Assembly (NCBI GenBank): GCA_010015585.1
Contig: ML975165.1
Direction: 5' to 3' (one strand)
Source: Eremomyces bilateralis CBS 781.70
Taxonomy: Eukaryota
Length of the DNA stretch: 64,000 nt
The notes under the pieces: generated by a model
What the model was told of the DNA's origin: nothing
The model's input: the letters and a program-made list of their open reading frames with translations, nothing else
Databases searched by the model: none
Position numbers and translations under genes: made by a program
Part shown: positions 2,635 through 64,000 of the stretch, one piece after another
Numbering within the stretch: the stretch's first letter is position 1
Layout: each line of letters opens with the position of its first letter

Positions 2635-3256
2635 GGTGACTGTGCTCAAGAAGCTCTGATGGAAGGCTCCGCTACCAATTGAAATGAAAAGGGTAGAAAG
2701 AGGGAGGTGATGGTTGGTGTAGATGGAGCTTGGAGATGGAAGCAAAGGTTGTACTTGCTGGTCTTTCCTCGGGTTGAAGGTTTCGTCGCACCGGATGAGC
2801 TGCTGACTAAGGGGGTGAGCTCCGTGCTTTTATCGCTGCACAGAACACTGTTCCCTTAAGGGTCAACGCGAAGGTATGCCGTTATGCCATACACATTCAC
2901 AGTTCACTTTTTGAAGCATACTTAATTAAAATTTAAATCCAGGACTCCTTCCATTCGAATGAAACAAAGTAAATAATCTCATATCTTCGTTGCTAGTTAA
3001 ATTTGGAAATTGAACCTGAAGGCACTGCATGCCCAGTCTCCCACGCTCCCGTCACGTGTGCCTGGAATCCCTCTCTACCCGAGCCACGCTTCAAAGGCTT
3101 GCAGTTACATTTACATTGGAATCGTACTATGAAGTCCAAGAAGAATCAGCCATAGGGAATAGAAATGTAGCAACCGCTTAACCCCCGCCAAAAGGTGTCG
3201 CACGCTTGCACAACTCAAGTCCTTCCTCTCACCAGCCACCATATCAACAGCTCGCC

Positions 3257-4007
3257 TCAGTTCTTCGTCCCATTCGCCGCCCCCTCCGCCTTCCCCCCCT
3301 GCTTCGACTCCCGAAACTTCTTGATCTCCTTCTCCACCGCCTTCTCGAGCCTTGCCTTAAGCTCTGGCCGGTACCCGAAGAAGAACAGGATCTCGAACCA
3401 CACGAAGAACGGCGCCAGGAAGAGCGCCTGCACGAGGTTGTCGAGGAGCGCAGGCGCCCGGCCCTCGAACGCGCCGTGGCCGACGAACTGGGCGAGCCAG
3501 GAGACGACGTGGACGCCGAGGGCGAGGTAGTTCGCGGTCATGCCGTAGGCTTTGGTGAGGTGGTTGGCGTAGGCGGTGCCGCCTAGCAGCAGGGGAGCGA
3601 GGAGGCTTCCTGCGACCGGTTCCATTAGGATGTATAGGCCCGAGTATAGAACGGCGGCGACGGTTCCGGCGTTGAGGGGGAAGGTTTCGGAAGAAAGGTA
3701 AGGTGGTAGGGGAATCGAGGGAGAGTTGGTGCCCTGTCCAGTTAGAATCATGTTGAGATAGAGATAGAGATATACCATACGAAGAGGAAGGCCGTCAACA
3801 AGATCGCCGGTACGCAGGTGATATGGATTCCGACATTGACCTGTTCGTCAGTCAATACTGAGGCCCGAAACGGGATATCGAATGCGAGTTGGCCTCACTG
3901 GATTATGATGGTAAGCACCATACTACGCTCTGTTAGAACACGATCTCCAAACATCATGGTACAATCATCCATACGAAAAGAAGCTGTTTCTCCAGATTGA
4001 GTGCCAT
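3257..4007 (-). CDS. MPO1: Mpo1/DUF962 (YGL010w-like) ER membrane protein, putative 2-hydroxy fatty acid dioxygenase (4 exons: 4007-3975, 3922-3899, 3840-3781, 3733-3257)
   Basis: Spliced N-terminus MALNLEKQLLFYGAYHHNPVNVGIHITCVP; family motif WLAQFVGHGAFEGRAPALLDNLVQAL. Confidence 0.88.
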
Positions 4008-4830
4008 GGTGCCGTCAAGCCCACGCTGGAGATGTCGACCACGCGGGAGTGTTGGTAGGTACAAGTGAATGCCCTGGAGGAATGACGGCGGTTTCTACGC
4101 GCCCATAATAGAACTGTGGAGGGGTCCGAACACTTTGGCGGAATTGAGATATAGAAAGGAACGAGTGATATACGGATGATGCCGGCCGAAGGTTCCACGG
4201 TGTCTGCACTCTTAACGCTTACAAGCCGCGGTGTTCGATTCACATGACAGATGGAGAGACGGGCAGCTTATCTGACTTTCCTGTCCCTTGCGCTTTCCCT
4301 TGCAAGCACGCGAATCATGCGGTTGGGGGTGAAAAGGATTTCGGCCTTGTGGCCTTGTAGCCTGAGCGCATGTCTGTCAACCACCATCGATAGCACAAGC
4401 AGAACATGCATCGCAGGATGCGTACTGGTAGTGTCTGGACATTTTCGACGCATCCGCCCACCCATATCCACACATTTCGGAGACGGAACGTTGGCCGCTA
4501 CTATTTGCTACACTCATTTGATCGATTTGGACCGCGAAGAAAGGAATTCCTCCCTTGTGTGGGCGTGGATCCGCCTCGTTCGACTCCATTGCGTCCGCCA
4601 CGAGTAAACACCCAGCACCTTAGACGATATCTCTATTGACATACGCTCCGAAGCGAAGACACCAACATCGATACCCGGAGTTGTAGGATATCCATCCGTC
4701 TATCTCCTCCCAGGATCCGCGAAGAGCGCTTCCGAGGCGCACGCCTCGCCGGAGTGCCCTGCGTTCTTCCTCCACCCCACCCGACCTCTCGCTCTATCGA
4801 ACGTGACGATTCGTCCTCCCCCCTTTCACA

Positions 4831-5548
4831 ATGTTCTTCATCCACGACATGGAGCGCACGATCACGCTCCACCCGTCATACATGGGCCCGCACGTGAAAG
4901 ACATCCTCCTCCACCGCCTGCACGCGGACGTCGAGGGCGCCAACATGGGGAACTTCTACGTGGTGTTGATCATGGATACGGGGTATGAGGTATCGGAGGG
5001 GCGGATCATGCCGGGGACGGGGTTCGCGGAGTACACGGTGCATTACCGGGCGGTGGTGTGGCGGCCATTCAGAGGAGAGATCGTCGGTATGTTGGCTGGG
5101 AGCGAAACCGTGGAGAACAAGGTTAACGAAGCGCAGATGGGGTGGTGAACTCGGTCGTTGACGGCGGATTCTTCGTCAACGTCGGCCCGCTGAGTGTATT
5201 CGTCGCGAAGAGTGTAGGTGGACATGGACCCGGCGCCCCGGATATGGAGCTGACCGTCGACAGATGATCCCCGGCGAAATCAAATTCGACGGCAACGCCA
5301 CGCCGCCGCAGTGGACGGACAACGGCGACCAGATCATCGAGAAGGATACCAAGATCCGCATCAAGATCAAGGGTCTGCGGGTGGAGATGGGTACCATGTA
5401 TGCGATCGCGACGATCAAAGAGGTACGCACTCCCTATGTTCTGTGTTTGAAGTAAAACTGACTTATGCGATCTAGGATTATCTTGGGTAAGACGGAATGT
5501 GTTCGACTGCGCGTGTCATTGCTAACTTCCTCTAGACCTCTACCTTGA
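4831..5548 (+). CDS. RPB7: RNA polymerase II subunit Rpb7 (5 exons, including an 11-nt micro-exon GATTATCTTGG)
   Basis: MFFIHDMERTITLHPSYMGP...VVWRPFRGEIVDGVV...GFFVNVGPLSVFV...AIATIKEDYLGPLP*, matching Rpb7 N- and C-terminal signatures. Confidence 0.95.
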
Positions 5549-6209
5549 GTGGCTGGAAAGACCCTACAAAGTTGATACCCGCACAAGCGCGAAGGAAACC
5601 CACGTTCGGAGGGTTGGAACCCCCACGTTTAAAGCAGGAAGAAAAGGAAGAAAAGCCAACCGTTGGAAACATAGCCGGAAGCGAAAAAGTGCTTTGTGAT
5701 GCTCAGTTCATACTGGGAGAGGCTGGACAGCAGGCCTCCCTTGAGGAGTGCAAGGCAGGGAGGTTGTTACGATGAAGCAATAAATGCAGCTTCAGGAGGA
5801 AGAGGATGCTTCACACTAGCTCTATTGAGATCAAAGAGCCGTTTGAACAATTCAACAAATGAGGACCAAATCTTCTTCTACGCCTTGTATTCAGTGCATG
5901 AATTGTTTCAGTTTCCGTACGTATTATGCATTTATGTCTCATGCGGAATATGAAATATCCCGGAAATGGGGACCAATAGGAAGGCCAAACAGAGAACCCT
6001 CCCCATTGGCCGGTCTTCGGTATATTGATTGTTGCCATCTATTCCCACATGCCGACAACTAGACACATCTCGAACTACGATTAAAAGCAGGATATCCATA
6101 AAACATCTAAGCGTTGTTCTTGTCGTTCGCTCCATCTGCTTTGCTATATACCTCCCATACAGCATGTTGTGAAGCCCACTACACACCACATCCTCCGCAG
6201 TCCGCAACC

Positions 6210-8998
6210 ATGGGTCGAGACGACGAGCTCGAGGAGACCAAGCCATTACGGCAGGACTCCGACGACGGCATCTCCCCTCGCCCCTCCACCTCGACCATCT
6301 CCACCACCTCTCTCGTCTTCGACCACCTCGACTCCTCTTCTCGCAAACACCCCCATCCAGCCCGCTACACCGACGACGATCCCAACGACCACCACAAGCT
6401 CCCCTCCCCCCTCCAGATCGAAGACGCCGCCTCATATCCCATCACCCCCGTCTCCCGCTCCTCCAAGCGTTGGCTCTGGCTCATCGGCTCCCTCGCCTGT
6501 GCCGGCTGGCTCGTCGCGCTCGCCGTGCTCCTCCACCGCGGCGACTACTTCCACGCGGCGCACCCCCGCCCGCACGACCCCGAGGCGACGAAGACCGTGC
6601 GCATCGGGAAGAAGGTCACGCTGGACCAGGTGCTAGGGGGCACATGGAGGGCGCGGCGGCACGAGATTAGCTGGATCGAAGGGGCCGAGGGGGAGGATGG
6701 GTTGTTGTTGGAGCAGGGGGGGACGGGAGGGCGGGATTATTTGGTGGTGGAGGATGTGCGGAGGAGGAATGAGACTAAGACCGCGCTGATGAAGAATGGG
6801 GGTTTTTTCGTGGGAGAGCATTGGGTGCAGCCCGGGAAGGTGTGGCCGAGTCCGGATTTGACGAAGGTGTTGGTGGCGAGCGATCGGGAGCAGAATTGGA
6901 GGCATAGCTTCACGGGGCTGTATTGGATCTTCGACGTCGCGAGCCAGACGGGCGAGCCGCTGGATCCGGCGAATCCCACGGCCCGGATCCAGTTGGCGCA
7001 GTGGGCGCCGACGAGCCGCGCGGTGTCGTTCACGAGGGACAATAACCTGTATATCCGGCCGATTCGGATGCAGGAGGCATATAAGATCACGGAAGACGGG
7101 GGTCCGGAGACGTTCAACGGCGTCCCCGATTGGGTCTATGAAGAGGAGGTGTTCGCCGGCAACAGCGCGACCTGGTGGTCTGAAGATGGCAAATACATCG
7201 CGTTCCTCCGCACCGACGAGTCCCAGGTTCCGACGTATCCCATCCAGTACTTCGTTTCGCGGCCGAGCGGCGAGCAGCCCGAGCCCGGGCTGGAGAACTA
7301 CCCGGAGGTGCGCCACATCAAGTATCCGAAAGCGGGGGCGCCGAACCCGGTGGTCCAGCTGCGATTCTTCAGCGTCACTGAGAATCGCGTGTTCAACATC
7401 GACGTGCCGGATGACTTCGCCGACGACGATCGGTTGATCACCGAGGTCGTGTGGGCGGGGCGCAGTGGGAAGGTGCTGGTCCGCGAAACCAACCGGGAGA
7501 GCGACCTGCTGAAAGTGGTGCTCATGGACGTCGACCGCCGGACGGGGAAGACGGTGCGGACGGAAGATGTCAATGCCTTGGATGGCGGCTGGATGGAAGT
7601 ATCGCAAGAGACGACGTTCATCCCCGGTGATCCGCGTAGAGGCCGGAACCACGACGGGTACATCGACACCGTCATCGTCGATGGGTTCGATCATCTGGGC
7701 TATTTCAGTCCCGTGGACAGCGCGGAACCGGTCCTGCTGACCAAAGGAGCATGGGAAGTGGTCAAGGCCCCGTCGGCCATCGACCTGAAAAACAACTTCA
7801 TCTATTTCGTCGCCACTAAAGACGGCTCCATCGAACGCCACGTCTACAAAGTCAAGCTCGACGGCACCGGCCTCGAGCCCCTGACTGACGTGAGCAAAGA
7901 CGGATACTACTCCGTTTCCTTCTCCTCCGGTGCCGGATACGCCCTGCTCTCCTACGATGGACCCGGCATCCCGTGGCAGAAAGTGATCAGCACGCCGAGC
8001 ACCCACGAGCAGTTCGATGCCACCATCGAAGAAAACAAACAGCTCGCCACCTTCGCCGCGAAGCACGAGCTGCCCATCTACAACTACCAGACCATCACCA
8101 TCGACGGCGTCGAGCTCAACCTGTTGGAACGCCGCCCCCCGCACTTCAACGAGAAAAAGAAATACCCTGTCCTCTTCTGGATGTACCAAGGCCCCGGCTC
8201 GCAGACCGTCGACAAGAAATTCAACGTCGACTTCCAATCCTACGTCGCCTCCAACCTAGGCTACATCGTCGTGACCCTCGACGGCCGCGGCACCGGGTAC
8301 CTCGGCCGCGATGTCCGCTGCGCCACGCGCGGGAATATCGGGTATCTCGAGTCGTTCGACCAGATCGCTGCGGCGAAGATGTGGGCAAAGAAGAAATACG
8401 TGGATTCCGAGAAGATGGCGATCTGGGGATGGTCGTACGGCGGGTTCATGGCGCTCAAGACGCTGGAGCGCGACGCGGGAGAGACGTTTAAGTACGGGAT
8501 GGCGGTGGCGCCGGTGACGGACTGGCGGTATTATGATAGTATCTATACCGAGCGGTACATGCACACGCCACAGCACAATCCGGGAGGGTACATGAACGCG
8601 ACCGTCGCGGACGTCGATCGGCTAGGGAGAAATGTGCGGTTTTTGATCATGCATGGCGTGGCGGACGATAATGTGCACATGCAGAGCACGTTGACGCTGC
8701 TGGATCGGTTGGATTTGAGGGGGGTGGAGAATTATGATATGCATATGTTTCCGGATTCGAATCATGGGATTTACTTCCATAATGCGAATCGGATTGTATA
8801 CGATAGTGAGTACTCATTTCCTGAGAGGATAGGGGTTGCATGATACTGACGGACACAGAGCTGAATAACTGGCTTATCAATGCGTTCAATGGAGTGTGGT
8901 TAAAGACGGCAAACCCTACTCCGGTTGCACTCGAGGAGAAGAGGAAGGAAAGAAGGCAGCTACTCGATCACGCACGGGCGGCGGGGGTTTTGGATTGA
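6210..8998 (+). CDS. DAP2: Membrane-anchored dipeptidyl aminopeptidase B / DPP-IV (peptidase S9B); intron 8806-8858
   Basis: N-terminal transmembrane segment (WLWLIGSLACAGWLVALAVLL); DWVYEEE motif; catalytic GWSYGG; DDNVH and DSNH elements of the catalytic triad. Confidence 0.95.
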
Positions 8999-9090
8999 CA
9001 TGGAGACCCTCTGTTTGATGGTTCATAAATGCTGCATTGAAGGCGTTGGCAAGTCGCTTTATAGCGCTGGAAAGGCGTTAAAGCCAATAT

Positions 9091-10588: not shown

Positions 10589-13514
10589 ATGGTGAAATCC
10601 TATACGAAGTATGAGCAATCCAATGCCTTCGGCGTAGTCACCTCCGGCTCGTCGAACATCGTCTGGAGTGCGGACGAGTCGGCGCAGAACCGCAATGGGT
10701 TGCAGACGAGTACGGGCCTCACCTTCGTGGGGGCGAATGAAGATGTTCTTTGCTGGGACTTGAAGAAAGGCGATCTGATTTCCAGATGGCATGATAGCGG
10801 ATGCAAGAGCGAGGTTACGGTGATTGCGCAGAGCAAAACGGATAAAGATATATTCGCTGTGGGGTGAGTACTCCGACTCGATCGCAACATTGAAGAGTAT
10901 TGACTAGTGCAGGTACGACGATGGCAGTATACGATTATGGGACTCGAGAATGGGCTCGCAGCTGATCACATTCAATGGCCATAAATCAGCAGTTACCTCA
11001 CTCGCCTTCGATCTGTCAGGGGTTCGGCTAGCGAGTGGTTCCAAAGATACTGATATTATAATTTGGGATCTGGTGGCTGAAACCGGGGCTTTCAAGTTGC
11101 GAGGTCATAAGGACCAAGTCGTCTCATTGCATTTCATTATCCCGAAAGCTTCTGCAGACGAAGAGGAGGACCAGGCTGCACTCAATGACGATGCGACTGG
11201 CGGGTACATATTATCTGCCAGCAAGGACGCGCTGATCAAGCTATGGGACCTCTCTTCTCAACACTGCATCGAGACTCATGTCTCACAATCGAATGGAGGA
11301 TGTTCCGCTATGGGACTATCAGCGGACGGCAACGCATGCATCACCGCGGGGAGTGAAGGCGAACTCAAAGTCTGGTTGATCGATCAAGCCGGGCTCCGAG
11401 AAGCGTCACGAAATGTCCAAGACTCGACCGGGAAGAGTTTCATCCATGATCGAGGTACCTTGAGACGGTACGAGAAGGACCGCGCCGTCGGTGTGAGCTT
11501 CCATCCTCGGTCGAACTATATCGCCATCCACGGCTCGGAGAAGGCAGTCGAGATATGGAGGATGAGGTCCGAAGAAGAGGTGATCAAGGTGCTGGCGAGG
11601 AAGAGACGGCGAGCTCGGGAGAAGGCTCTGGTCGAAGGAAAAGAGGAAGATGCCTTGAAAGATGTGGCCACCGCCCAATTGACCGATCTATTTGTTCTGC
11701 ATGTCATCGTCCGGCCGTCCGGCAAAGTTCGATCATGCGACTGGATGAACGTCCGCTCTTCGAACGCCATCCAACTAGCCGTTGCCACCCGAAATAACCT
11801 AGTGGAAACGTTCTCAATATCCACGAAGGAGAAATCAAAAAAAGGCAAGACGGAAGACGAGCCGAATTACGATCGCACGCATTCCGTGGATCTGCCGGGT
11901 CATCGCGCAGATGTGCGCGCGCTGACATTAAGCTCGGACGATCGCATGCTCGCATCGGCGTCGAATGGTGGACTGAAGATTTGGAATGTCCAGACGCGAA
12001 ATTGTCTGCGGACGCTCGAGTGCGGATACGCGCTTTGCGCCGCGTTCCTTCCTGGCGACAAGATTGTGGTGGTGGGGACGAAATCCGGCGAACTGGAGCT
12101 CTTCGACATCGCCACGGCGACCCTGATTGAGAGATTCCAGGGCCATGAAAACGCGGTCTGGACGTTGCAGGTGCACCCAGATGGACGGTCACTGGTCACC
12201 GGGGGTGCCGATAAAACCGCCAAATTCTGGAACTTTGAAATCGTGCAGGAGGAGATCCCCGGCACTCGACGCACGACGCCGCGCCTTAAATTAGTCCACA
12301 AACGAACGCTGAAGGTCAACGATGACGTTCTGAGCGTCCGCTTCACACCCGATGCCCGGTTACTGGCTGTCGCGACGCTGGACAACACCGTCAAAGTCTT
12401 CTTCGTCGATTCCCTCAAGCTCTTCCTCACCCTCTACGGCCACAAGCTCCCCGTCCTCAATATGTCCATCTCCTCCGATAGCAAGATCATCGCCACCTGC
12501 AGCGCTGACAAGAACGTCCGCCTCTGGGGCCTCGACTTCGGCGACTGCCACAAGGCCTTCTTCGCGCACAACGACAGCATCCTGAACGTCGCCTTCATCC
12601 CGCACCCGGTCTCCAAGGAAGACGCCCACTTCTTCTTTAGCGCCAGCAAGGACCGCCTGATCAAAACATGGGACGGTGACAAGTTCGAGCACGTCCAGAA
12701 ACTCGACGGCCACGCCGGCGAGATCTGGGCCATGGCCGTCAGCCGCACCGGCGACTTCCTCGTCACCGCCTCCCACGACAAGAGCCTCCGCATCTGGTCC
12801 CAGTCCGACGAACCCATCTTCCTCGAGGAAGAGCGCGAGAAGGAACTCGAGGACCTCTATGAATCCACCCTCGAGGCCAACCTCGCCGACGACGTCGACG
12901 GTGACGCTGGCGACAAATCCGAGGTCGCGGCTGCGTCCAAACAGACCGTCGCGACGCTCACCGCCGGCGAGCGCATCGCGGAGGCGCTCGAATTGGGGTA
13001 CGCGGACCTGCAGCTGGTGAACGAATGGACGGCGCAGAAGGCCACGAACCCGAAGCTCGCGCCGCCGGCGCGCGACCCACTGTTCCTCGCGCTGAACCAA
13101 ATCTCGGCGGAGAAGCACGTGCTGAACACGATCATGCGGATCCCGGCAGCGCAGCTGCAGGACGCGCTACTCGTGCTCCCGTTCGCGACGGTGGGGCCTT
13201 TGTTCACGTTCGTGGGGATCTGGCTGCGGCGGCAGTGGGCGACGGGGATAGCTTGCCGGGTGCTGTTCTTCATGCTGCGGACGCATCAGCGGCAGGTGGT
13301 GGCGAGTCGGGAGCTGAAGGGGATGTTGGAGGCGATGCGGGGGGATTTGGGGCGGACGTTGGGGATCGCGAAGGATGTGATGGGATTTAATCGGGCGGCG
13401 TTGGGGTTTGTGGCGGAGAGGGTGAGGGAAAAGGGGGAGCGGCGGATTGAGGATGTAGAGGCAGCGGATGAGAGTAAGGGGAGGAGGAAGCGGGCGTTTG
13501 TGGACGTGGGGTGA
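10589..13514 (+). CDS. UTP12: U3 snoRNP/SSU processome WD40 protein Utp12/Dip2 (one intron, about 10864-10912)
   Basis: MVKSYTKYE start; many WD40 repeats; LYGHKLPVL and WGLDFGDCHK motifs; C-terminal Utp12 domain (LQDALLVLPF). Confidence 0.95.
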
Positions 13515-14228
13515 ACGAGGCGGATGGAAAAGCAGGGACGGCGAATGGAGCATGGGTTCATGGGATTGTCGTGTTGGATATTGGGAATTCGTATTTTTCA
13601 ATGTGAACTAAGTGGAAGGATCTACTCCATTAACTACCTACTGAACACCCCTCCGGCCAGAGCAACACCGTGAAGCATGAGCACTCCAGCCGACGCGAAC
13701 CACGAACCGAACCGGTATCTTTGTAATTAATTAACAAAATCCATGGACCGCACCCTCGCCACCGCCCTTCCGCATGCAACGGCCGCAGTTGGTCGACGGT
13801 TGCGGGACCGCGTGGAGAAAAAAGCCGATCTCGAAAGATCCGAAGCAAAATACAATCTGGTATCTTCAGCGCTGAAGGGGAGAAAAAAGAACGGGATAAG
13901 AAGTACAGGCAGGGACAGCGAGGAATGGCGAACAGCAAGTGAAGCCCGCCGCGGATGGTCGAAACAAAGGGGGAATGAGAAGGTGAACTGAAGCGAACGA
14001 CGGGGTCATTGAGAGCGTAAACAACGGCGACTGGAAAGCCTGGGGGTCCATCCGTAACATTTTGTACCGGGAAAAGAAGGAAACTCATGGAACGTTCGGC
14101 GGTGACGTCGATGGAAAAGTATGGGGGAGACCAATAATCATAGCCGACCGACCATCTCATCCTGTAATTTCGTTAGTCCTCAAACTCCTTCCCAAACCAT
14201 AAACAGAGCCAAGCTCACTCACCTCCAT

Positions 14229-41675: not shown

Positions 41676-41790
41676 CGCCTCAAAATGCGGATTGAAGGTG
41701 AAGGTGGGGCGGGAGCATCGAAGGGGATGTTTAGGGTGGTGTTTAGTTGGTGTTTAGACTGGAGGGAGTGAGGTCTGGAGGTGGAAGCGG

Positions 41791-41819
41791 AACGCGTTCA
41801 TGGATTCACTGGTCGCGAC
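41791..41819. promoter_or_regulatory. MCB-like elements (AACGCGTT, GTCGCGAC) about 120-140 bp upstream of SCM3
   Basis: Exact ACGCGT at 41792-41797 plus a second CGCG core; function inferred from the yeast MBF consensus. Confidence 0.4.
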
Positions 41820-54762: not shown

Positions 54763-56089
54763 GGTGGAGGGGAACGAGGACTATGCCTCTATTCCGCGCG
54801 GGTTTGGGAACCGGAAATGAGGGGAATCTGATATTCGCCCGCGGAGGTGCACGACAATCCCGAAGGCATCAACTCGAAACGTGCCGGTGTTGAAAAAGCA
54901 GGACTTCTGGATTGTAGGATCAAATGATAGCCCGGAACCTTCAATGGAACTGAATTGGTGTCGAATTGGTGTCGAGTTGTCGTAGACGCGATAGAGGAGT
55001 GGTAACACGATCGAGCACGGTGTGATGCAATTAAGGAAACGAGTGAAACGACAAACGGTGATTGACGCTGCAGAGGAGCTGAAGAAACGAGAGACAAGTC
55101 GATAATATTATAGCGACCGGAAATATGACAGCCAGCAGTTCAGAATGTCTGATTACCTAGCAAGAGAACGAGACACCTGGAAATGTCAAAATTCCTGTCG
55201 ATCGGCCGACGGAGGGTCTTAGGCCTTGGGAGGCGACGACATTTTCAACTATTTTTCAGGTCCCGAAGAACCCGGTTCACGGATCTAATGACCCAATAGC
55301 CCAATTAGTTATTAGCATGTTGTTTATTCTAGTGGGCATGACGCAGCGGTTGCAGGAAAGTTGTGCAGACCAGTGGAAATGTTGAATTAATCTTAAGTTC
55401 GGAACGATACCCAAGAGTCCAAGCCAATGCCTGAGTGCCAGAAACCTTAATGGCGGCACGGCAGCAGCTGCGCATATTACTGCATAGGAACTTAGGAAGA
55501 GCTAGGAACGCCCCAACCGTTGAACCACCCAACGGTTGTGCTGTTTCACGGGAAACTCGAACTTCCGATTGCTACTAAGCCTCTACCAATCCTGCCATTT
55601 GCGATTTGTTCAGACTCTAGTATCCCCTATGCAGTATGCACAATGCATTGTCCTTGGAAGTGGATAAAAACAGGGTCGCTGACGTGAATATGGGGTCCGC
55701 TAATCACCTGAATTCTCGCCACCCCCCCTCATTGCGAAAGATCTGGATTGAATCTCCATCCCGTCTCCACCGTATGGCAGATTAGCAGGTAATCACTAAT
55801 ACCACGATTCGAGTTGCCATTTTGGTATGCCACGGCGTTCTGTTGGGAGACACAACATTGTTGACGGTGTCTATGGACGGGTTGGGCCGTGGTTCAGGGC
55901 GGAGAATCGGAGATATCCATCGTTGTATCATTGACTGGACCCGGAATTCGGAAACCTATCAAAAAATCGCTCAATTGATGCATCAATCATGTGAAGTGCT
56001 CTCCATTGCTCCATCCATCACCAACTCCGATCATCCCAGCAGCCAAACATCGCCAATCCAATCAAAACCCCAACATCTCATTCTAGAAA

Positions 56090-57440
56090 TCACCGTCTTG
56101 CCCTCAACACCCGTCCCCCACTCGTCCCAGTAGTAGGCGCAGCAGCAGCCACTTCCCCCCTCTTCCCCGTCCCCTTCCTCCCCCNNNNNNNNNNNNNNNN
56201 NNNNNNNNNNNNNNNNNNNNNNNNNNNNNNNNNNNNNNNNNNNNNNNNNNNNNNNNNNNNNNNNNNNNNNNNNNNNNNNNNNNNNNNNNNNNNNNNNNNN
56301 NNNNNNNNNNNNNNNNNNNNNNNNNNNNNNNNNNNNNNNNNNNNNNNNNNNNNNNNNNNNNNNNNNNNNNNNNNNNNNNNNNNNNNNNNNNNNNNNNNNN
56401 NNNNNNNNNNNNNNNNNNNNNNNNNNNNNNNNNNNNNNNNNNNNNNNNNNNNNNNNNNNNNNNNNNNNNNNNNNNNNNNNNNNNNNNNNNNNNNNNNNNN
56501 NNNNNNNNNNNNNNNNNNNNNNNNNNNNNNNNNNNNNNNNNNNNNNNNNNNNNNNNNNNNNNNNNNNNNNNNNNNNNNNNNNNNNNNNNNNNNNNNNNNN
56601 NNNNNNNNNNNNNNNNNNNNNNNNNNNNNNNNNNNNNNNNNNNNNNNNNNNGGGGCGGGAGGGTTGGTTGGTGGTGGAGGGAGGAGGCCCGAGTTTGGTG
56701 CGTTTTTTGGGAAGGGAGAGGTTGTGGTGGGTGGTGTTTTCTTTGTCAGAGGCGGCCATTTCGGAGCTGGTTGGTGGGTTAGGTTAGTTACGGATTCTGA
56801 GGGGATGGTGGATGCGGTCTTACCTTGGTCTCTTCTTTCCGAGGGATCGGAGGGGACTGTTTTCTTTATCTGCGCGAGCGGTCGTGGAATCTAGCCTGGG
56901 CATCTCGTGGTTCGTGATCGATCGCTCTCCGAGAGGTGCGGGTTTCACGGGCGACGGATTGGCGTATTTGTTCACCAATTCTTCAATGTTGGCGGATCTC
57001 AAGGACTGCGGTACACGGTTGATGCGCATCTCGAGTCTTGATCGGAGACCTTGCGCATGTAACGCGTAGATGGCACGAAGTTTGCGAGCTCGTTCGGTGA
57101 CTGACCGTCAGTTAGCACCGTCGTATTTTAGGATGCGAGACGACTTACCTTCAAGCTGCAGATTATCAATAAGCGCCTGTCTTTGGGCGACAGTAATCTT
57201 CGGATATCTGGCAACATCTCGTTCCGGAGTCTTTTGCTCCTCGCCGGTCTTCGTTGGAACCACCGCCGCTGGTGGAGCGGCTTCTGGGAAGGCTCCAGGT
57301 ATCGACATTTCGGCTACTTCAGTAGGAATCTGGATTCTATCGCGCTGTGGGGATCTCCAAATCGAGGCGCCAAATTGTAAGATTCGTTTGGCGGAGTTTG
57401 TGGTTTGATCCAATAGGTTTTGGGAGGTTGTAGAAGGCAT
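56090..57440 (-). CDS. Borealin/Nbl1-like chromosomal passenger complex subunit (spans assembly gap)
   Basis: Spliced QRQALIDNLQLEVTERARKLRAIYALHAQGLRSRLEMRINRVPQSLR matches the Borealin N-terminal domain; DKEN boxes; beyond the gap a plausible basic C-terminus GGRVLRARR* ends at 56090. Confidence 0.8.
56185..56651. other. Assembly gap (467 N)
   Basis: Run of N. Confidence 1.
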
Positions 57441-58564
57441 TCTGATAGTCGCGATGTCGACGAGCTTTGGTGGGCTCTGCTGTAAACAAACCCAAGCCAC
57501 GTATGTGAGGCGGTGCAAGTTTCAAGTCAGGTGATCAGTTCTGAGTTTGAATGAGCGGCGGATCGTTTTACCGGTCACCGGGATTGGCCGGCGTCGGATT
57601 TCCAACAAAACTCTTCACTTCTGGCAGAGAGTTTCTCTCTTTTCTTCTTTTCTCTTTACTGAACTACCCCTTCATATCCACTCCGTCTTTCGGTTTTAAA
57701 ACGCAGCAATGGGAGCTGGAGGGGAATATGAAGGGCAGATGAAATTTTTTCGAAAAGAAAAGCCAGCCTCTTACCCCTTACAAGTCGCGTCAAGAGACGG
57801 TCGGTTTGCGAGGAAAACAGTTGTTGGTACATCCCCTTGCTTGATGAGGAATCAGTGGCTTGTGTGTGGCGTGTGGCTGGTCACATGACTTGGTTCTCAC
57901 AGTCACGTACACGGTACACCTGCTTCTGATACATGATGAACCGTTGCAAATATGATAAAGTGCACCGTACTCAACTTTAAGCAATATAAATCGATGAAGC
58001 CATGGCGAGACAATGAGATGTCTGGTGCCTGTCCCGATATGAAACTTGGACGGTCCTGCTTGCTGCGTAGGAAGTACTGTAAACAAGAAACTATTTGCTA
58101 CTGTCAACCTGTGCCTTGACTTCGAATGCTCTATGAATTTCCCTCACGAGACCACTCTTCAACTGGGAATATGTATCAAGTGACAGATGACAGCTTTCTC
58201 TGGCCAACCAGCATGCTGCTAATGCAAGAAGTGCCTGACTGTATTGCTGCCCAGCGAGAACCGTCCAGCAAGTCCAAGTGACAATCCAACATTCGCCCCG
58301 CAACGATGACCCCTCCAAGTCCACTTTGCTACATCACCCACATATGACAACTCACTCCCGCTATTCTCTCTCTCCCATTCACCCAACACCACTTCCCTTT
58401 CGCCTCCTCCACCAACCTATTTACTTCAGGACTACTCTTCTGTCCAAGTATCAGCCCTCTTTTCTGATACAACTACACATCGCCATCCCCTCATCCAATT
58501 CGCTTAGCGAACCCCCCCACACAGTTCCAACACTACCCCTCCAAGACACCTCACCACCGTCACC

Positions 58565-59446
58565 ATGTCTTCACGCGGTCGCGGCGGCAAGTTCTCTAAG
58601 CCCAAGCGAGGCGGCGGACGACACTTCAACCGCAACCTTCAGCCCGTCGACAAGAACGGCGAGGCCATCAGCATGTGGGCGGTATGTAAATTCCCCGATG
58701 ACTCCCCCGCTCCCCGCCACTGCATCGTCACCAATCTCCTCCTCCTCCTCCTCCTCCTCCTCCTCCTCCTCCTCCTCCTCCTCCTCCTCCTCCTCCTCCT
58801 CCTCCTCTTCCCACCCTTTCAACCTCCCAGTAAGACAATAACCCACTAACATCATCCCTAGGACCCCGCCGACCGCAAAGATCCCGAAGACTCCGACGAC
58901 TCCTCCGAAGAGGAATCCTCCGAAGAAGAATCCTCCGAGGACGACGACCAACCCCAGTCTGCCATGACCCGCGAGGAGCGCCGCGCCGCCGCCAAGGCCC
59001 GCAAAGCTGCCGCCGCCGCCCGCTCCTCGGGTCGCCCGGAAGTTGGCGACCTGCCCCCGAACTCCTCTGAGGATGAGGACGACTCCGACTCCGACATGCC
59101 AGCGAACCCGAACCACACGACGAGCGCGCGCGCGCAGGCGTCCAAGGTGGCGAAGGCGCCGGGCGCTACGCCGGGCGCGGTGAAGAAGGCGGTGCAGGTG
59201 GCGAAGGCGGCGAAGGCGGCGAAAAAGGGGGAAGACTCGGAGGAGGATGAGGGGCCGGAGGAGGCACGGTTGGAGATGGAGAAGTTGCGGTTGGTGAGGG
59301 AGAGGCGGGAGGCGGAGGGGGCGAGGAGAAGGGCGGAGGAGGAGGAGAGGAGGGAGTTGGAGAAGGAGAAGAGGGAGCAGATGGAGAGGGAGGAGAGGAG
59401 GCGGGAGGCGGCGAGGGGACCGAAGGGGAAGAAGGGGAAGAAGTGA
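58565..59446 (+). CDS. PP28/PDAP1-family acidic-basic phosphoprotein (intron 58682-58861)
   Basis: RGRGGKFSKPKRGGGRHF; TREERR; GDLPP...SDMPANPNH; EKLRLVRERREAE. Confidence 0.78.
58736..58808. repeat. (CCT) microsatellite, about 24 copies, in the PP28 intron
   Basis: Visible perfect trinucleotide run between the GTATGT donor and the ACTAAC branch point. Confidence 0.97.
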
Positions 59447-59928
59447 GGGTTGAATCACTCACCGTTGAAATGCGAAGACCCCTAGCATTGGCGAGGATGG
59501 ATGTACCATCGATTGCATATGGACATTATGATGACTGCATAGAACTACTTAAAAAACGAAGCTTTCGCAATTGCTTTTCAAAATTGATGGAAAACTGGAA
59601 TATCTCGGCTCATACAAGTTACCACACGTCCCAATGATTCCAACCACATAATACGCTCTGCATATTCGTTTTTTACCTCTCGTCTAACATTGCTACAGGC
59701 CCCGCCAGTCGCTGGAGACGATTCATGGCCAAAAACCTTATATCCCACAATAACGACAGTGACAGTGCTCTTCAATGCGACAGTGTCCCTTGCCCGACCA
59801 AAACACGCTGAAAACATCCCATAGACATACATCACATATAATGTTACCAAACACCACGTCAAGAAGGGCGTACCTCCCCTACCAAACAAATCCACCCGTA
59901 GCGTTAACTCTGCCGCTTCCGAACGCAT

Positions 59929-61033
59929 CTACTCCTCCATCTCCCCTCGCTCTCGCCTCTCTTTAATCTCCCGTTCCGCCCTCTGCGTCGTCGTCATCCC
60001 CCTCCTCCCCTCCGCCCCCGGCCCCACCACCGGCGGCGTGCGATCCGCCGTATCGACCACGTTCGCATCGTACGTCATCCCGTCGATCAACCGCGCCTCG
60101 TTCCGCTCGCTCCCCGCCGCCACCTCCCTCCCCAGCGCGCTTTGTCCCGTCTCCCGCAAATGCACCGGCACCACGGCCGCCTTCCCCACCACCGGACTCC
60201 CCACCCCACTCGCCGCCCGCGCCGGCGTCCGCGCCCCCTCCCCAAACGCCACCAACGACCCCCCGTCGCTAAACCGATCGTCCCCCCCGTAATCCCCCAC
60301 GCTACTCGCCGTCTCCCCCATCAGGCTCTTCCCCTCCCCCTCATTCTCGTGCTCCAGGTCCTCCTCGTCCCGCATCTGCACCCCTCCGTCCTCGCTCACC
60401 CGGTCCGTCGTCGCCGTCGCCCCGTCGTCCATCCCCACGTCGCTCCCACTTGCCCACGTCGTCCGCCCCCCAACCGATCCCGTCGCCGACGCGCTTCCCA
60501 CTGTGCTGCGATCGCGCACCATGGTCGGCTCGCCCGCGCTACTGAAGAACGCCACGGTCGCATGGTGCCCAGCGCCGGGACCCGCGTGTGGATGCCCCGC
60601 TCCCGCGCCGCTGGGGTGTGTGGCGGCGGGGAACTGCGCGGGGCTGCCGGCTTGGACGGAGAGCGAGGTGTTGGAGGGGGCGAGGGAGCCGGTGGGGGGG
60701 CGGGCGGGTTGCTGGGAAATGCGTTCGAGGCCGGCGAGGCGGGAGATGCGGTCGGCGCGCTCGGCGTCGAGGGGGGCGGAGGAGCCAGGTTGGGAGGCGT
60801 GGTGGGGGAGGTGGCCGCGGTGGCCGTCTTTGATGGCGACAGTGCTGAGTTCGGACATGGAGGTGGTGGTGGAGGTGGGGGTGCCGCTGTTGGGGTTAGT
60901 ACAAGGTTTCAGGATGGCATGTGATGTTGGGAGCGGTCGAGAGATCTAGGAGAACTTACGGGCCCATCTCCGAGGGAGTGAGCGAGTCGGAAGGCGGAGG
61001 AGGGAGGTTTATGAGCATCGGAGTGTTCGCCAT
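59929..61033 (-). CDS. Conserved Pezizomycotina low-complexity protein, resembling proteins annotated RfeF-like (intron 60887-60959)
   Basis: Spliced LPPPPSDSLTPSEMGPGTPTSTTTSMSELSTVAIKDGH; AERADRISRLAGLER; STVGSASATGSVGGRTTWAS; ARLIDGMTYD. The RfeF name is from memory and unverified. Confidence 0.7.
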
Positions 61034-61360
61034 GATGGTTGTATATCCGTAGCTGACCTTAGCCGGTCCGATCAATGACGTTGATCGACGTTGTTATCGT
61101 GTTGAAAAGAGGATGCTCCAGCCTTCAGACTTCGAATGGTTTACAAAGAGAGGGATGATTCACGATCGGAAATATTCTTAAAGAACCTTTGAATTCCTTC
61201 CTAGCAGTTCTTGTAAGGTGGGATGAGTGAAAGTTGTATGACAGCAGAGCTGAGGGATGTGAGGGAGAGAGCAGCTCATTGGACCCTTTGACCCTTTCAC
61301 GCCGATCCACATCCCCCTCTCCCTCATTGGGAATTCACTGAACTCGAGGAACACTGTGTG

Positions 61361-61384
61361 ACTGCAAGACTGCAAGACTGCAAG
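61361..61384. repeat. (ACTGCAAG)3 short tandem repeat
   Basis: Three exact 8-mers between the POL2 stop and the RfeF-like start. Confidence 0.9.
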
Positions 61385-61654
61385 ATCGCTGGAGGTCGCA
61401 GATATCAGAGTAAGCTTCCTGTACTTGTCCAACAGGTCCGATGGATACAATGACGCGATGAAGAAATGCCTAAGAGTACATGTATGATGTAGGCTAATGC
61501 AGGTACATCGTAAAAGTAAGCTGTAAGACCGACACCCAGACGCCTTCCAAAATGCATTCCCATTTCCAACCAATCCAACCCTCCTGGTGACATGAATGTG
61601 TAACTCCATAGACATGACGACATGAACATTTGCATAGGAATGGGGATCCGTCAA

Positions 61655-64000
61655 TCAGAACCCATCGCCGGCCTCCGCCACCGCAGCATCGAGCATCTCC
61701 AGCCCATACCACCGCGCCACCTCCCTCAGCACCCGCATTCTCTCCCCCAGCTTCTCCCTACTCACCGTCCCCACCCACTCCCCAGCACAAGCACAATGCT
61801 CCATAAACTCATTCTTCCGGATCCGCGCACACTTCGCGCACTTGAGATCCTGTGTACACCACCGTACCACCATCGCCTGCACCTCCGCCACCAACGACTC
61901 CTCCACCCGCAACCGATCGAACTCTGCATCGCAATCACACCGCCACTTCGGAAGCGGCTGCACGCCTCTCCGCGACCCGCCCTCGCCGTCCCCGTCCACG
62001 TCGAACACCAGCGCCGACGCATCCCGACAGAGGTCGACGGACTTCGGCGCGCCGCACTCCTCGCACGTCATCTCGACGGGGCATTTCGCGCTAGGGTTCC
62101 GCCAGCGGGCTTCGGAGGCGAATTCGCGGACCTCGCAGAGGGAAAGGAGTTCTTTGCGGAGCATGCGCGCCTCGAGGGAGATCTCGCGGTCAAGGGAGAG
62201 GACTTGCATGAGCGACTTGATGAGCTGGAGGACAGGGTTGTTGTTGGCGGCGGAGGAGAGATGGGCGCCGGGGAGGGAGGGCATGGCATAGTCCGAGGCA
62301 AGGTCAGGATGCAGGAGCTCGGCGACCTGGCGACGGACGTGGCCTGCGATTCGCTTGGTGAGAGCCTTGGTGAAGGACTTGGGGAGGACGGATGTTATGA
62401 CTGCGGTATCTTGGGTCAAGCTTCGGACTGGGAGTTGCGTGACTCGCAGCGTTTCGCTTTCCCCTTCTCCTGATACCGTGGGCCGCTTGCGTCCATGCAT
62501 GAGATCGATGAACTGGATCACCCAGTCGCGGAAAACATCTTGAAGGTGCTGAGGAAGGACAGAGGCAAGTTGCCAATGCATCACGGTCTCCAATTGTTGT
62601 TCGGCCTCCGCGACGACCTCTTTGCAGCCAATGCCGCCGAAGTTGTAGTCATCGTACCAGACGAGGTAGTCCCAGTACTCTTGGATGTCGAGCTGAACAA
62701 AACTGAAGAGCGGTTTCGACTGCACGGTCTTGAGGATATACTGCGTGTAGGCAAAGGCGTTGCCAACCTCGCTCTTACTGGTCTGCAGGAGCAGTCGATG
62801 AGGGCTGGCGAACACGACCTGTGATCCAACCCGACGGAAGTCGCTGATGAGCTGCTGAAGCGCTTTCCGGGACATCATCTGGACGTAGTAGTGCAAGGCG
62901 CGGTCGTAGAGGAACGAACCCGGCGACTCCACCCATCGGACGAGGTGCTGGACCATGACGTCGGCCATCTGTCCGCCGTCGCGACATGCTTCGGACCACC
63001 ACGCCTTCACCATCTCGCGAAGCACAACGATTCCAGTCGTCGCGAACGCATTGTCACTGTAGATGACGTGGCCGTCGTCGGCGATATTCTTATCCGAAGG
63101 AGCGGCAGGGTTGAACGAGAACGAGTCGGCCCCTTCCGCGTCATTCACCAGCGAGGACGCTAGAATGGTGTTGATCGCAAGGTTTCGTAGGCTCAAGTCG
63201 ATGCAGACGGAAGAATACGTCCCCGGGTTGTTGACCTCGGGCATCTCAACCGTCTCCAGCGGCCCGACAATGTCGTCTTTCTCGTAGCCAGCATGATCAG
63301 GTTTTGACCCGGTGGACCACCACAAGACAACCCGCTCTTTGAGTAGACGTCGAGCATACGCCACATCGATCAGGAAGCGAGGGTCATGCCCTTCCATGTT
63401 ACATAGCGGAACGTTTCCGTATCGGGCGAGCTCGATGAGGTGCGATACCCACGCACCAAGGGTGAGGTAGTGCGTGACCAGCCGCTTCGCAACGAAGGTC
63501 TGCCAGCCCAGGGGCGGAAGGTTTTTGTCCGACTCATCGAACTTCAACGGAAGATTAGGGAACTCCTTCATGATCGGCACGACGTGAGGAAGAAGTCGGT
63601 GGTGCTGGCTCTGCACGACAAGGATGAAGCTCCCTTCCTTTTCGTCGTTCCGCATCTTCTTCATTGCGTCGCCGAGTTCTAGGTATGCCTTCCTTTTCGT
63701 CGTCACTTGGGTGGTCTTGAAGTGCATGTCGGTCTGGTACTCGAAGCACTGCTGCCATGACTGATCCTCGGCACTTTCAGTGACTCGTTTAGAGTACGCA
63801 TCTTTATAAAGCTTGTCGACATTCGGTAGACTCTGAGTGTCACGTCCTCGATTGAGGATGATGATGTGTCCCTGCGTGCCGGTACTGGAGCAGATGGCAA
63901 ACACCTGCCGATCCCCGACACTGACATGATAGAGGTAAAGGAATTTCAGCTGTGCTTGAGCGAGATACGGATCCGGCTTTGCCACCTGCCGCAATGCACT
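61655..64000 (-). CDS. POL2: DNA polymerase epsilon catalytic subunit, C-terminal part (gene continues beyond the window)
   Basis: ARYGNVPLCN; VNNPGTYSSVCIDL; YWDYLVWYDDYNFGG; C-terminal CEEC...DLC and QDLKCAKC...HCACAGEW metal-binding motifs. Confidence 0.96.
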   Translation of the reverse strand, partial: SALRQVAKPDPYLAQAQLKFLYLYHVSVGDRQVFAICSSTGTQGHIIILNRGRDTQSLPNVDKLYKDAYSKRVTESAEDQSWQQCFEYQTDMHFKTTQVTTKRKAYLELGDAMKKMRNDEKEGSFILVVQSQHHRLLPHVVPIMKEFPNLPLKFDESDKNLPPLGWQTFVAKRLVTHYLTLGAWVSHLIELARYGNVPLCNMEGHDPRFLIDVAYARRLLKERVVLWWSTGSKPDHAGYEKDDIVGPLETVEMPEVNNPGTYSSVCIDLSLRNLAINTILASSLVNDAEGADSFSFNPAAPSDKNIADDGHVIYSDNAFATTGIVVLREMVKAWWSEACRDGGQMADVMVQHLVRWVESPGSFLYDRALHYYVQMMSRKALQQLISDFRRVGSQVVFASPHRLLLQTSKSEVGNAFAYTQYILKTVQSKPLFSFVQLDIQEYWDYLVWYDDYNFGGIGCKEVVAEAEQQLETVMHWQLASVLPQHLQDVFRDWVIQFIDLMHGRKRPTVSGEGESETLRVTQLPVRSLTQDTAVITSVLPKSFTKALTKRIAGHVRRQVAELLHPDLASDYAMPSLPGAHLSSAANNNPVLQLIKSLMQVLSLDREISLEARMLRKELLSLCEVREFASEARWRNPSAKCPVEMTCEECGAPKSVDLCRDASALVFDVDGDGEGGSRRGVQPLPKWRCDCDAEFDRLRVEESLVAEVQAMVVRWCTQDLKCAKCARIRKNEFMEHCACAGEWVGTVSREKLGERMRVLREVARWYGLEMLDAAVAEAGDGF

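Follow-up and report, generated by a model that had tools for sequence, protein, structure and literature searches.

The window analysed here, a stretch of 64,000 nucleotides from contig ML975165.1 of Eremomyces bilateralis CBS 781.70 (GCA_010015585.1), is nuclear DNA of a Dothideomycete, and one of the encoded proteins matches an NCBI entry that bears this species name. It carries among others the genes for DAP2, UTP12/WDR3, MSB1, an RLM1-like MADS protein, PLB, an MscS-like protein and POL2, and its + strand repeatedly switches from C excess to G excess (Table 1). The initial annotation had listed about 20 centres of such switches. A C-to-G switch was found within 200 nt of 20 out of 20 of them, with a skew difference of 0.49-1.74 between 300-nt flanks, the two largest differences belonging to the switches that span N gaps. 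Centres were refined as the minimum of cumulative skew; besides those in Table 1, the refinement gave a weak centre at 33730 with a G half only. Furthermore, RNA contigs of a different sample and study showed 0 differences over 6053-8805 and 10912-16722. The C-to-G switches are thus confirmed.

Table 1. Skew units and flat control region of the window. Centres are refined positions; counts are bases within introns.
Type	Interval	Centre	Gene (strand) and position	Remarks
C/G unit	3200..3800	3403	Mpo1-like gene (-), near 3' end	
C/G unit	4600..5300	4923	Rpb7-like gene (+), 5' end	Two introns in G half, G19 C8 and G19 C14
C/G unit	6000..7100	6581	DAP2, 5'UTR and first 124 codons (C), codons 125-300 (G)	4-fold skew -0.79 to +0.64
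C/G unit	7770..8995	8326	DAP2, 3' part	Intron 8806-8858 in G half, G17 C9
C/G unit	12348..13634	12965	UTP12/WDR3 (+), 3' third	5' two-thirds of gene flat
C/G unit	14160..15000	14472	MSB1 (-), 3' end	
C/G unit	19600..20190	19976	DUF3140 gene (+)	
Long C block, then short G block	22900..24400	24107	RLM1-like MADS gene (+)	
C/G unit	25200..25900	25554	Penta-EF-hand gene (+)	Pro-rich, then Gly-rich low-complexity stretch; introns 25285-25378 G9 C53, 25814-25899 G41 C6
C/G unit	27000..27870	Inside assembly gap 27152-27646		Flank skews -0.68, +0.88
C/G unit	27880..28430	28218	Gene 26932-28428 (+), 3' end	
C/G unit	28532..29100	28726	Dynamitin (-), 3' end	Weaker than other units
Flat control region	29800..48800		LSD1-like, MTase28, PALP, SCM3, APG6, DUF6594	GC3 about 0.5; 4-fold bases near 25% each; no significant switch
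C/G unit	48947..49900	49139	PLB (-), 3' part	
C/G unit	50200..50921	50570	PLB (-), 5' exon	
C/G unit	51800..53300	52204	MscS-like gene (-), 3' part	+ strand 4-fold skew -0.73 to +0.58
C/G unit	54000..55200	54563	MscS-like gene (-), 5' part	4-fold skew -0.85 to +0.83
C/G unit	56000..56900	Inside assembly gap 56185-56651		
C/G unit	58200..59540	59118	PP28 gene (+), with C-rich upstream/5'UTR	
C/G unit	59600..61100	60609	Unnamed gene 59932-60945 (-) and its 3'UTR side	
C/G unit	61600..62700	62074	POL2 (-), 3' end	4-fold skew -0.81 to +0.66

The order of the blocks had been described as always C then G. "Always" is partly a matter of selection, since sharp G-to-C switches are present too, mainly at gene ends (20 against 21 C-to-G switches at a threshold of 0.5, and 7 against 13 at 0.7). 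A switch at 41540 (SCM3), absent from the earlier list, is an amino-acid effect only. The centres are indeed CG-dense: CpG observed/expected within 100 nt of them is 1.27-1.43 as compared with 1.06 for the window, total GC is highest there (0.68 vs 0.53) and GC3 is maximal at the jumps. No motif common to the refined centres was found in the 64-kb window, and the centres show no T/A skew.

Skew at silent sites, in introns and in untranslated regions

Base counts at 4-fold sites were summed over the 11 centres located within coding sequences, taking 100 codons per side in sense orientation. The C blocks contained A41 C468 G94 T49 and the G blocks A46 C75 G357 T23, as compared with 332/340/332/281 (A/C/G/T) in the flat genes. 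The flip that had been reported for third codon positions survives at these sites, where the skew passes from about -0.8 to about +0.7; its size is greatest here, and codon positions 1 and 2 shift too. In the G blocks, R sites are G192:A12 and Y sites C103:T83, while in the C blocks Y sites are C202:T27 and R sites G69:A60; both kinds are about 50:50 in the flat genes. T is the rarest base at the 4-fold sites of the G blocks (23 of 501). The bias pushes one strand to G from A, C and T alike and, because the complementary changes are left alone, it is not a symmetric AT-to-GC pressure. Close to stop codons, Y sites turn to T.

Codon-shuffled controls comprised 1000 synonymous shuffles per gene. 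None of the 1000 matched the observed switch in DAP2, MSB1, MscS, POL2, PLB, gene 59932-60945 and RLM1, where it amounts to 1.28-1.69 across 60-codon flanks, and the same result (0/1000) was obtained for UTP12, the eighth such gene. For the LSD1-like gene, SCM3, dynamitin, APG6, PALP and MTase28 the switch was not significant against the codon shuffles. Flanking introns and UTRs follow the flip, as the initial annotation had stated: introns are C-rich within a C block (G9 C53) and G-rich within a G block (G41 C6), 5'UTR and upstream skews are -0.37, -0.25 and -0.55, and those on the 3' side, read in sense, are +0.42 and +0.38. The ATP synthase gene uses C/T-ending codons and has no flip, unlike the G blocks with T-ending Y codons and the C blocks with A-ending R codons. 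The substitution bias is thus shown to work on the DNA, at silent sites, introns and UTRs, and not via codon choice, and these data support the long-lived strand-asymmetric process proposed at the outset.

Relation of the switches to gene ends

Contrary to what had been suggested, the centres are not independent of gene structure. Their mean distance from the nearest end of the coding sequence is 307 nt, while positions drawn at random within these genes average 523 nt (P=0.003), and they sit 140-670 nt within the coding sequence. Independence from gene strand is true in a trivial sense but uninformative, because C-then-G is invariant under reverse complement. The 4-fold skew is C-ward (negative) over the initial 80 codons, counted from the first ATG, in 9 of 12 genes and G-ward (positive) over the last 80 codons in 14 of 16. 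In all nine genes with a verified stop codon the G half rises up to it, and past the stop codon skew and high GC fade over 60-120 nt. The DAP2 mRNA contig starts 528 nt upstream of the DAP2 centre. RNA contigs continue over intergenic DNA, and the G half stops near the stop codon, not at a mapped poly(A) site. A short gene carries a single sharp C-to-G jump, a long gene two, with a slow G-to-C ramp between them. The skew is limited to stretches with GC3 of 0.8-0.95, and adjoining genes are untouched. On the sense strand, C predominates along the 5'UTR and the first codons and G along the last ones. The favoured strand shifts along the gene, from antisense at the 5' end to sense at the 3' end. 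The switch domains are probably gene-end skew near saturation, not free-standing points.

Metagenome orthologs of DAP2 with a protein identity of 56-67% were compared with regard to whether orthologous positions share the switches. A C-rich body that jumps to G at about residue 700-760 is present in orthologs L005, L007, L009, L010, L019, L011 and L034, and L002 and L013 have the C-then-G pattern at the 5' end. The same residues are involved in distant orthologs; those whose GC3 is near 0.5 show a flat profile. The L009 ortholog has three units, which speaks against a simple transcription model; its middle G block stops short of the end of the aligned coding region (residue 865) by about 350 nt, and the third C/G unit spans that point. 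As judged from these sequences, the skew pattern is persistent and gene-anchored.

Discussion

We consider it probable that the switches represent the gene-anchored GC skew of fungal genes, caused by a strand-asymmetric substitution bias and not by replication origins. As to the source of the bias, we tentatively suggest that transcription may repeatedly expose the non-template strand as a single strand; close to 3' ends this would be the work of sense transcripts, and close to 5' ends of antisense or upstream-directed ones. In abasic-site bypass of the Rev1 type, C is placed opposite a damaged base. Damaged bases on the exposed strand would get C refilled opposite them, and the exposed strand would therefore become G-rich; R-loops favoured by G-rich RNA could reinforce the skewed state. 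Several observations oppose a simple transcription model: the UTP12 transcript is flat for 1.4 kb before a full unit, the ATP synthase gene, presumably highly expressed, lacks a flip, no skew is seen in seven neighbouring genes at 29.8-48.8 kb, and the G half ends by the stop codon while RNA contigs cross intergenic DNA. Moreover, DAP2, MscS, PLB and gene 26932-28428 have a strong G block after the 5' C block and a strong C block before the 3' G block. Such mid-gene blocks are not predicted by a profile with C at the 5' end, intermediate values and G at the 3' end, and antisense or intragenic initiation would be needed.

An unlikely alternative is that meiotic double-strand breaks at stable hotspots, sited either in nucleosome-free gene flanks, which form the G-to-C boundaries, or else at the C-to-G centres, leave a resected single strand that gains C>G and A>G changes or is subject to biased repair. 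The pattern shows mirror symmetry about gene flanks, as expected of a strand-symmetric break process. The patchiness is regional rather than per transcript (half of UTP12 and the whole of 29.8-48.8 kb are flat), like recombination rates, which vary regionally along the genome; the GC and GC3 maxima at the jumps and the turn of Y sites to T close to stop codons would fit as well. In the available text of Hinch 2023 (PMC7615360), the 2-kb flanks of human hotspots show a strand asymmetry in their C>N and A>N changes, which fall on the single-stranded side; C>G and A>G stand out among these and affect one strand on either side of a point over 1-2 kb. These are the changes that give a G-rich strand, although there they form a mutation-rate footprint in rare variants and here a fixed composition. 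Their sign would place breaks at the G-to-C boundaries, the gene flanks; for breaks at the C-to-G centres the sign would run counter to the human data as understood here. If the breaks lay at the flanks, however, variable resection length should blur the C-to-G meeting points, yet precisely these are sharpest, while the G-to-C changes within genes are gradual. In RLM1 the C skew keeps increasing over as much as 1.5 kb away from the 5' flank, and long genes would require extra diffuse mid-gene break zones. A symmetric AT-to-GC push, as would be expected of ordinary GC-biased gene conversion, is absent.

It is improbable that the pattern reflects selection on the transcript or on events that accompany transcription. 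In a compact genome, a G-rich 3' end might aid pausing, R-loop formation and termination; McLean and Tirosh's ideas of CTP sparing or of collision avoidance might apply; or C block and G block might form a long hairpin. Unit limits respect gene ends, the same residues recur in distant orthologs, and changes to G are favoured from all three other bases irrespective of chemistry, which suggests preference for a state more than a single mutational lesion. On the other hand, seven units showed no extra folding beyond composition when compared with block-wise synonymous shuffles (MFE z -2.9, -0.8, -1.2, +0.2, +1.2, +1.3 and -0.3), the Y sites of the G blocks reveal no overall avoidance of C, and the pattern is wholly absent from many genes. 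Holding hundreds of silent sites per gene in the weakly expressed POL2 and UTP12 would probably need implausibly strong coefficients.

Replication origins, the earlier lead, in which forks leaving each centre in both directions would render the outward strand G-rich, are very unlikely. The C-then-G polarity and the sawtooth of sharp upward jumps and slow returns do fit origin-linked skew jumps, as known from bacteria and from human "N-domains", but the units described here are hundreds of times smaller and gene-anchored. Eukaryotic origins lie tens of kb apart and their skews are weak, whereas about 20 centres fall within 64 kb, 1.4-3 kb apart in the island regions with a 19-kb stretch without any, and their 4-fold skew of 0.8-1.0 is far higher. 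In addition, the centres are tied to the ends of coding sequences in GC-rich coding DNA, T/A skew is lacking, and the skew fades within some 600 nt with no replicon-wide span. An origin of the flips in amino-acid composition, in translational codon choice or in faulty assembly, suggested by the shift at codon positions 1 and 2, the Pro-rich then Gly-rich unit and the two units spanning assembly gaps, is refuted by the 4-fold sites, the shuffles, the introns and UTRs, the codon endings unlike those of the ATP synthase gene, proteins whose matches to Pfam domains and orthologs continue across the flips, and RNA contigs of another sample that are identical base for base.

The gene-anchored skew of the window can be compared with several known systems. 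Ginno and colleagues reportedly described GC-skew flips, linked to R-loops, at human bidirectional CpG-island promoters and at gene 3' ends. Such flips would share with the window a GC-rich, CpG-rich peak with C-then-G at its midpoint and, at some 3' ends, a G-rich sense strand, but they are said to lie at transcription start sites, whereas our centres are within coding sequence. The published C-skew peak at transcription start sites resembles our 5' C blocks in its sense-strand C excess around the start site and 5'UTR, but measures about 100 nt and has neither a flip to G inside the coding sequence nor 3' units. GRINS, defined as duplicated regions of >500 bp and >80% identity in which GC and TA skews are correlated, likewise show abrupt intense skews with a third-position maximum, recoded functional proteins and shifted amino-acid use; the units described here have no TA skew, and no repeats were found among them in the 64-kb window. 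The CG3 skew of grasses (Tatarinova 2010, PMC2895627; see also PMC8535453 for Brachypodium) is also a third-position preference between C and G that depends on GC3 class and position in the gene, but amounts to about 0.05-0.1 against 0.8-1.0 here, and the available text of Tatarinova 2010 describes no sharp flips.

The switches are probably an extreme form of the gene-end base bias known in yeasts, and the shuffle controls and the RNA contig match show that the pattern is not due to chance, amino-acid use or artefact. According to the available text of McLean and Tirosh 2011 (PMC3315797), the coding strand of yeast genes has a C bias at 5' ends and a G bias at 3' ends, strongest at the stop codon; 4-fold sites are affected, the bias reaches promoters and 3'UTRs, amino-acid use follows and there is no matching A/T gradient, all as in the window. 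In that text the cause is given as unknown, the mean skews are modest, 4-fold sites are no more affected than other positions, and the data are species-wide averages with a smooth three-part profile. Here, in a Dothideomycete of filamentous lineage, the jumps are sharp and 4-fold sites are far more affected. As far as the available text goes, the window extends the yeast pattern by a near-saturated skew, by jumps that are sharp and followed by a slow return, with two such jumps in a long gene, by restriction to GC3-rich stretches next to flat genes, and, in distant DAP2 orthologs, by its recurrence at the same residues.

Results

Skew switches are carried by silent sites

The initial annotation had listed about 20 centres at which a block of strong C excess gives way to one of strong G excess, and a C-to-G switch in skew, (G-C)/(G+C), was recovered within 200 nt of all 20, with sizes of 0.49 to 1.74 over 300-nt flanks. 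Refining the centres to the minimum of cumulative skew gave 19 positions, with 2 more inside gaps, in 64 kb; no common motif was seen at the refined centres. The switches are carried by silent sites, as 4-fold degenerate skew passes from about -0.8 to about +0.7 at several centres, and some G blocks hold just 0-1 C per about 20 4-fold sites (40-codon windows). In the codon-shuffle control, the observed jump (1.28-1.69) was reached by none of 1000 synonymous shuffles per gene in eight genes (DAP2, MSB1, MscS, POL2, PLB, gene 59932-60945, RLM1 and UTP12), and no remarkable jump relative to shuffles was found in six others (LSD1-like, SCM3, dynamitin, APG6, PALP and MTase28). The claim that the polarity is always C then G stands for every listed centre but not for the window as a whole, which also has sharp G-to-C switches, 20 at a threshold of 0.5 and 7 at 0.7, mostly at gene ends. 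Inside coding sequences the G-to-C changes are weaker (-0.17 to -1.24) and fell outside the shuffles, at the 3/1000 level, in RLM1 only.

Averaged over 18 centres, skew was -0.45 at -200 nt, +0.44 at +100 nt and about zero by about 600 nt, and T/A skew in this meta-profile was about zero. GC at the centres was 0.68 against 0.53, a peak in total GC that owes partly to non-coding DNA beyond one side, and GC3 at the jumps was 0.88-0.95. The centres are indeed CG-dense, with a CpG observed/expected ratio of 1.27-1.43 against 1.06. Units are limited to stretches with GC3 of 0.8-0.95. UTP12 runs flat for 1.4 kb and then holds a full unit within one gene. Short genes carry a single jump; in DAP2, MscS, PLB and gene 26932-28428 a slow G-to-C ramp connects two jumps.

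Sequence fidelity and content of the window

DNA contigs from the probable source agree with the window sequence. Stronger evidence comes from spliced RNA contigs of a different sample and study, which match it without differences over the two stretches covered; the skewed sequence is therefore no artefact. The RNA label of this second run is a guess, but the run behaves as RNA, since its contigs carry spliced joints. Both N gaps fall in the middle of the two most extreme units, a kind of sequence that may resist sequencing or assembly.

The window is nuclear eukaryotic DNA with short spliced introns. Genes were called by Pfam on ORFs together with GC3 phase; a crude coding score on codon positions 1-2 did not tell sense from antisense frames. 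By their Pfam domains the ORFs are ordinary fungal genes: ATP synthase alpha/beta, Mpo1, Rpb7-like, DAP2, ARPC2, UTP12/WDR3, MSB1, DUF3140, an RLM1-like MADS factor, a penta-EF-hand protein, dynamitin, an LSD1-like oxidase, SCM3, APG6, PLB, an MscS-like channel, borealin, PP28 and POL2. An Rfam search of the window gave no match. The DAP2 frame is 100% identical to the NCBI protein of Eremomyces bilateralis CBS 781.70 over 77% of its length, and its next-nearest relatives are Dothideomycetes at 60-74% identity. The public protein has 718 aa; an RNA contig starting at 6053 spans the entire frame and includes an intron, which places the true C-terminus downstream of it.

Features of the window and their positions
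Feature	Position	Observation
C-to-G centre, DAP2	6581	4-fold skew -0.79 to +0.64
C-to-G centre, MSB1	14472	4-fold skew -0.87 to +0.67
C-to-G centre, MscS	54563	4-fold skew -0.85 to +0.83
C-to-G centre, POL2	62074	4-fold skew -0.81 to +0.66
Sharp G-to-C switches (examples)	13588, 20277, 28501, 59543	at gene ends
Flat region	29.8-48.8 kb	each base about 25% of 4-fold sites
N gap	27152-27646	flank skews -0.68/+0.88
N gap	56185-56651	flank skews -0.64/+0.67
Spliced RNA contigs	6053-8805, 10912-16722	0 differences from window
DAP2 frame	6210-8995	877 aa
DAP2 intron	8806-8858	
Convergent pair DAP2/ARPC2	8805-9170	one RNA contig across, both-strand introns; 3' ends probably overlap
Convergent pair UTP12/MSB1	13514-14229	one RNA contig across, both-strand introns; 3' ends probably overlap
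Intron	14161-14221	directly past MSB1 stop codon
Stretch of about 2 kb between MSB1 5' end and DUF3140 gene	17600-19500	no Pfam match; RNA-covered; G-to-C change near 18150, then mild C excess over 1.3 kb, GC content ordinary
High-copy stretch of about 200 nt	21445-21650	word depth in the DNA run about 26,500 (rest of the window about 200); depth also up in the RNA run; many contigs stop or diverge at its edges; no Rfam match; resembles a dispersed repeat, for instance a MITE or LTR fragment
Penta-EF-hand N-terminal low-complexity region	25380-25800	Pro-rich (CCN) in C block, Gly-rich (GGN) in G block

Units are anchored to gene structure

Independence from gene strand, noted in the initial annotation, is uninformative as evidence, because the C-then-G order survives reverse complementation and thus looks the same in genes of both orientations. 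Read in the sense orientation, each unit consists of C-ending codons followed by G-ending codons, and the units are anchored to gene structure. The mean distance from a centre to the nearest CDS end was 307 nt (range 141-669 nt; 17 centres whose gene bounds are known) against 523 nt for random positions drawn within the same genes (P=0.003), and in long genes alone 354 against 705 nt (P=0.003). In the last 80 codons 14 of 16 genes, all but SCM3 and ATP synthase, had positive 4-fold skew, a count that includes weak values in genes flat elsewhere. In the first 80 codons, counted from the first ATG, 4-fold skew was negative in 9 of 12 genes, three of the 12 having an unreliable proxy start. The G half gains strength up to the stop codon in all nine genes with a verified stop, a set that leaves out DAP2, whose stop lies inside an intron, and Mpo1. 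Past the stop codon both skew and high GC fade at 60-120 nt.

One strand is pushed towards G

As proposed initially, introns and UTRs share the local skew: introns of the EF-hand gene hold G9 C53 in the C block and G41 C6 in the G block, and shorter introns lean as their host block does. Skew is -0.25 to -0.55 in 5'UTRs and upstream sequence, and +0.42 in the first 120 nt past the UTP12 stop. Counts at silent sites reveal a push to G on one strand, at the expense of A, C and T alike, with the complementary classes left at baseline. Since C blocks push only pyrimidine (Y) sites and G blocks only purine (R) sites, ordinary symmetric GC-biased conversion does not account for the pattern. Cytosine deamination as sole cause was rejected as well, T not being enriched overall at Y sites of G blocks (C103:T83 against 294:290 in flat genes), even though Y sites do become richer in T in the final windows ahead of stops.

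Sense-strand base counts at silent sites (C and G blocks summed over 11 centres)
Class	4-fold	Y two-fold	R two-fold
C block	A41 C468 G94 T49	C202:T27	G69:A60
G block	A46 C75 G357 T23	C103:T83	G192:A12
Flat genes	332/340/332/281	294:290	279:228

Codon positions 1 and 2 are also shifted, and in the penta-EF-hand protein the skew seems to have partitioned the residues of a disordered tract. Lineage-specific amino-acid replacements in DAP2, sorted by block into A>G-type and T>C-type, were very few (0-5 per class).

The bias in other fungi

The metagenome scan by DAP2 alignment covered 29 fungal loci. Loci L007, L009 and L010 are G-skewed across bins 3-7, C-skewed across bins 13-17 and jump at bins 17-18, the same residue bins as in the window DAP2. 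In loci L005, L019, L011 and L034 a C-skewed body jumps to G near residues 700-760, and loci L002 and L013 pass from C to G in the 5' part; DAP2 orthologs with GC3 of about 0.5 are flat. In the soil or plant-associated metagenome contig of L009, positions 1700-4650 hold three units, the last of which spans the point where the aligned coding region ends. The fungal DAP2 loci have, for every 10 kb, 0.65 strong C-to-G and 0.47 strong G-to-C switches, compared with 2.03 and 1.09 in the window, and none was found in 369 kb of bacterial loci. The bias persists over deep divergence. In a syntenic relative that carries the same species label, at 80-90% identity to the window, C-G exchanges make up 263 of 1087 differences, an unusually high share which shows that the C/G state itself turns over fast.

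Discussion

We show a gene-anchored, strand-asymmetric substitution bias towards G. The same gene-level pattern is described for unicellular fungi by McLean and Tirosh 2011 (PMC3315797), where the cause is left open between Pol II phase-specific mutation and adaptive CTP/C-avoidance. The window shares with their pattern C-biased sense 5' ends, G-biased 3' ends strongest at the stop, and an extent that takes in 4-fold sites as well as sequence outside the CDS, so neither a protein nor a translation effect is at work. It departs from their three-part profile with intermediate, more or less constant mid-gene skew in DAP2, MscS, PLB and gene 26932-28428, where strong G follows the 5' C block and strong C precedes the 3' G block. 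Our literature search found no paper on gene-end skew in filamentous fungi and, as a treatment of nuclear genes, McLean and Tirosh 2011 alone. Fujimori 2005 describes C excess at the TSS, and grass CG3 skews are about 0.05-0.1 in Tatarinova 2010 (PMC2895627). The flip of CpG-island-type bidirectional promoters is at the TSS, whereas the centres here lie 141-669 nt within the CDS and an RNA contig covers DAP2 from 6053 past the centre at 6581. GRINS look similar but are repeats with correlated TA skew, features that the units lack; window self-BLAST for duplications of that type (>500 bp, >80% identity) gave only short low-complexity matches, in SCM3 and PP28.

The mechanism that we rank first, tentatively, is transcription-linked: a single strand would be exposed, and C put in opposite lost bases would drive that strand towards G. 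A simple expression-driven form of it is at odds with the patchiness inside one transcript and with the flat ATP synthase gene. Next, and rather unlikely, comes exposure or repair bias linked to meiotic breaks. Human hotspot data (Hinch 2023, PMC7615360) provide the right kinds of change, but their sign places the breaks at gene flanks, which makes the sharp C-to-G jumps hard to explain. A meiotic hotspot with GC-biased gene conversion would likewise produce the local peak in GC and GC3, yet its symmetric AT-to-GC push is absent here and the unpushed class is at the level of flat genes. Neither the transcription nor the break model explains everything.

The sawtooth shape favours fixed initiation points located at the jumps. 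It is conceivable, though unlikely, that each unit records a fixed site of bidirectional initiation within a gene, some hundreds of bases from the gene end. Such sites might be intragenic sites of divergent transcription or R-loops, or stable recombination sites with strand-asymmetric repair bias. A process spreading outward from such sites would nearly saturate the outward 5'-to-3' strand with G, sharp jumps marking initiation and slow ramps distributed termination. Replication N-domains follow a similar logic of jump and ramp, but the units are about a thousand times smaller.

Selection on RNA is improbable, as folding of the C half with the G half into a hairpin gave no consistent excess over block-wise shuffles. 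Replication origins, the initial proposal, share the upward C-to-G jump on the + strand but are very improbable here, given the lack of T/A skew and of replicon-long persistence (GC skew is gone by about 600 nt), the ties to CDS ends in place of gene-independent positions, and 19 + 2 centres in 64 kb in place of a spacing of tens of kb.

Opposite skews at the two ends of fungal genes have awaited an explanation since 2011, and in Eremomyces bilateralis the effect is near saturation, which lets single genes reveal properties that averages over yeast genes conceal: a drive to G on one strand from each of the three other bases without symmetric GC pressure, sharp jumps with slow returns, and affected and untouched stretches adjoining within one transcript. 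This organism is therefore apt for testing transcription-linked against recombination-linked causes. The bias alters protein composition, as in the Pro-rich then Gly-rich tract, and may misguide gene callers (compare the public DAP2 model, which covers only 77% of the frame). If the units do mark fixed initiation sites, sequence alone would provide a base-resolution map of these sites, conserved in distant fungi.
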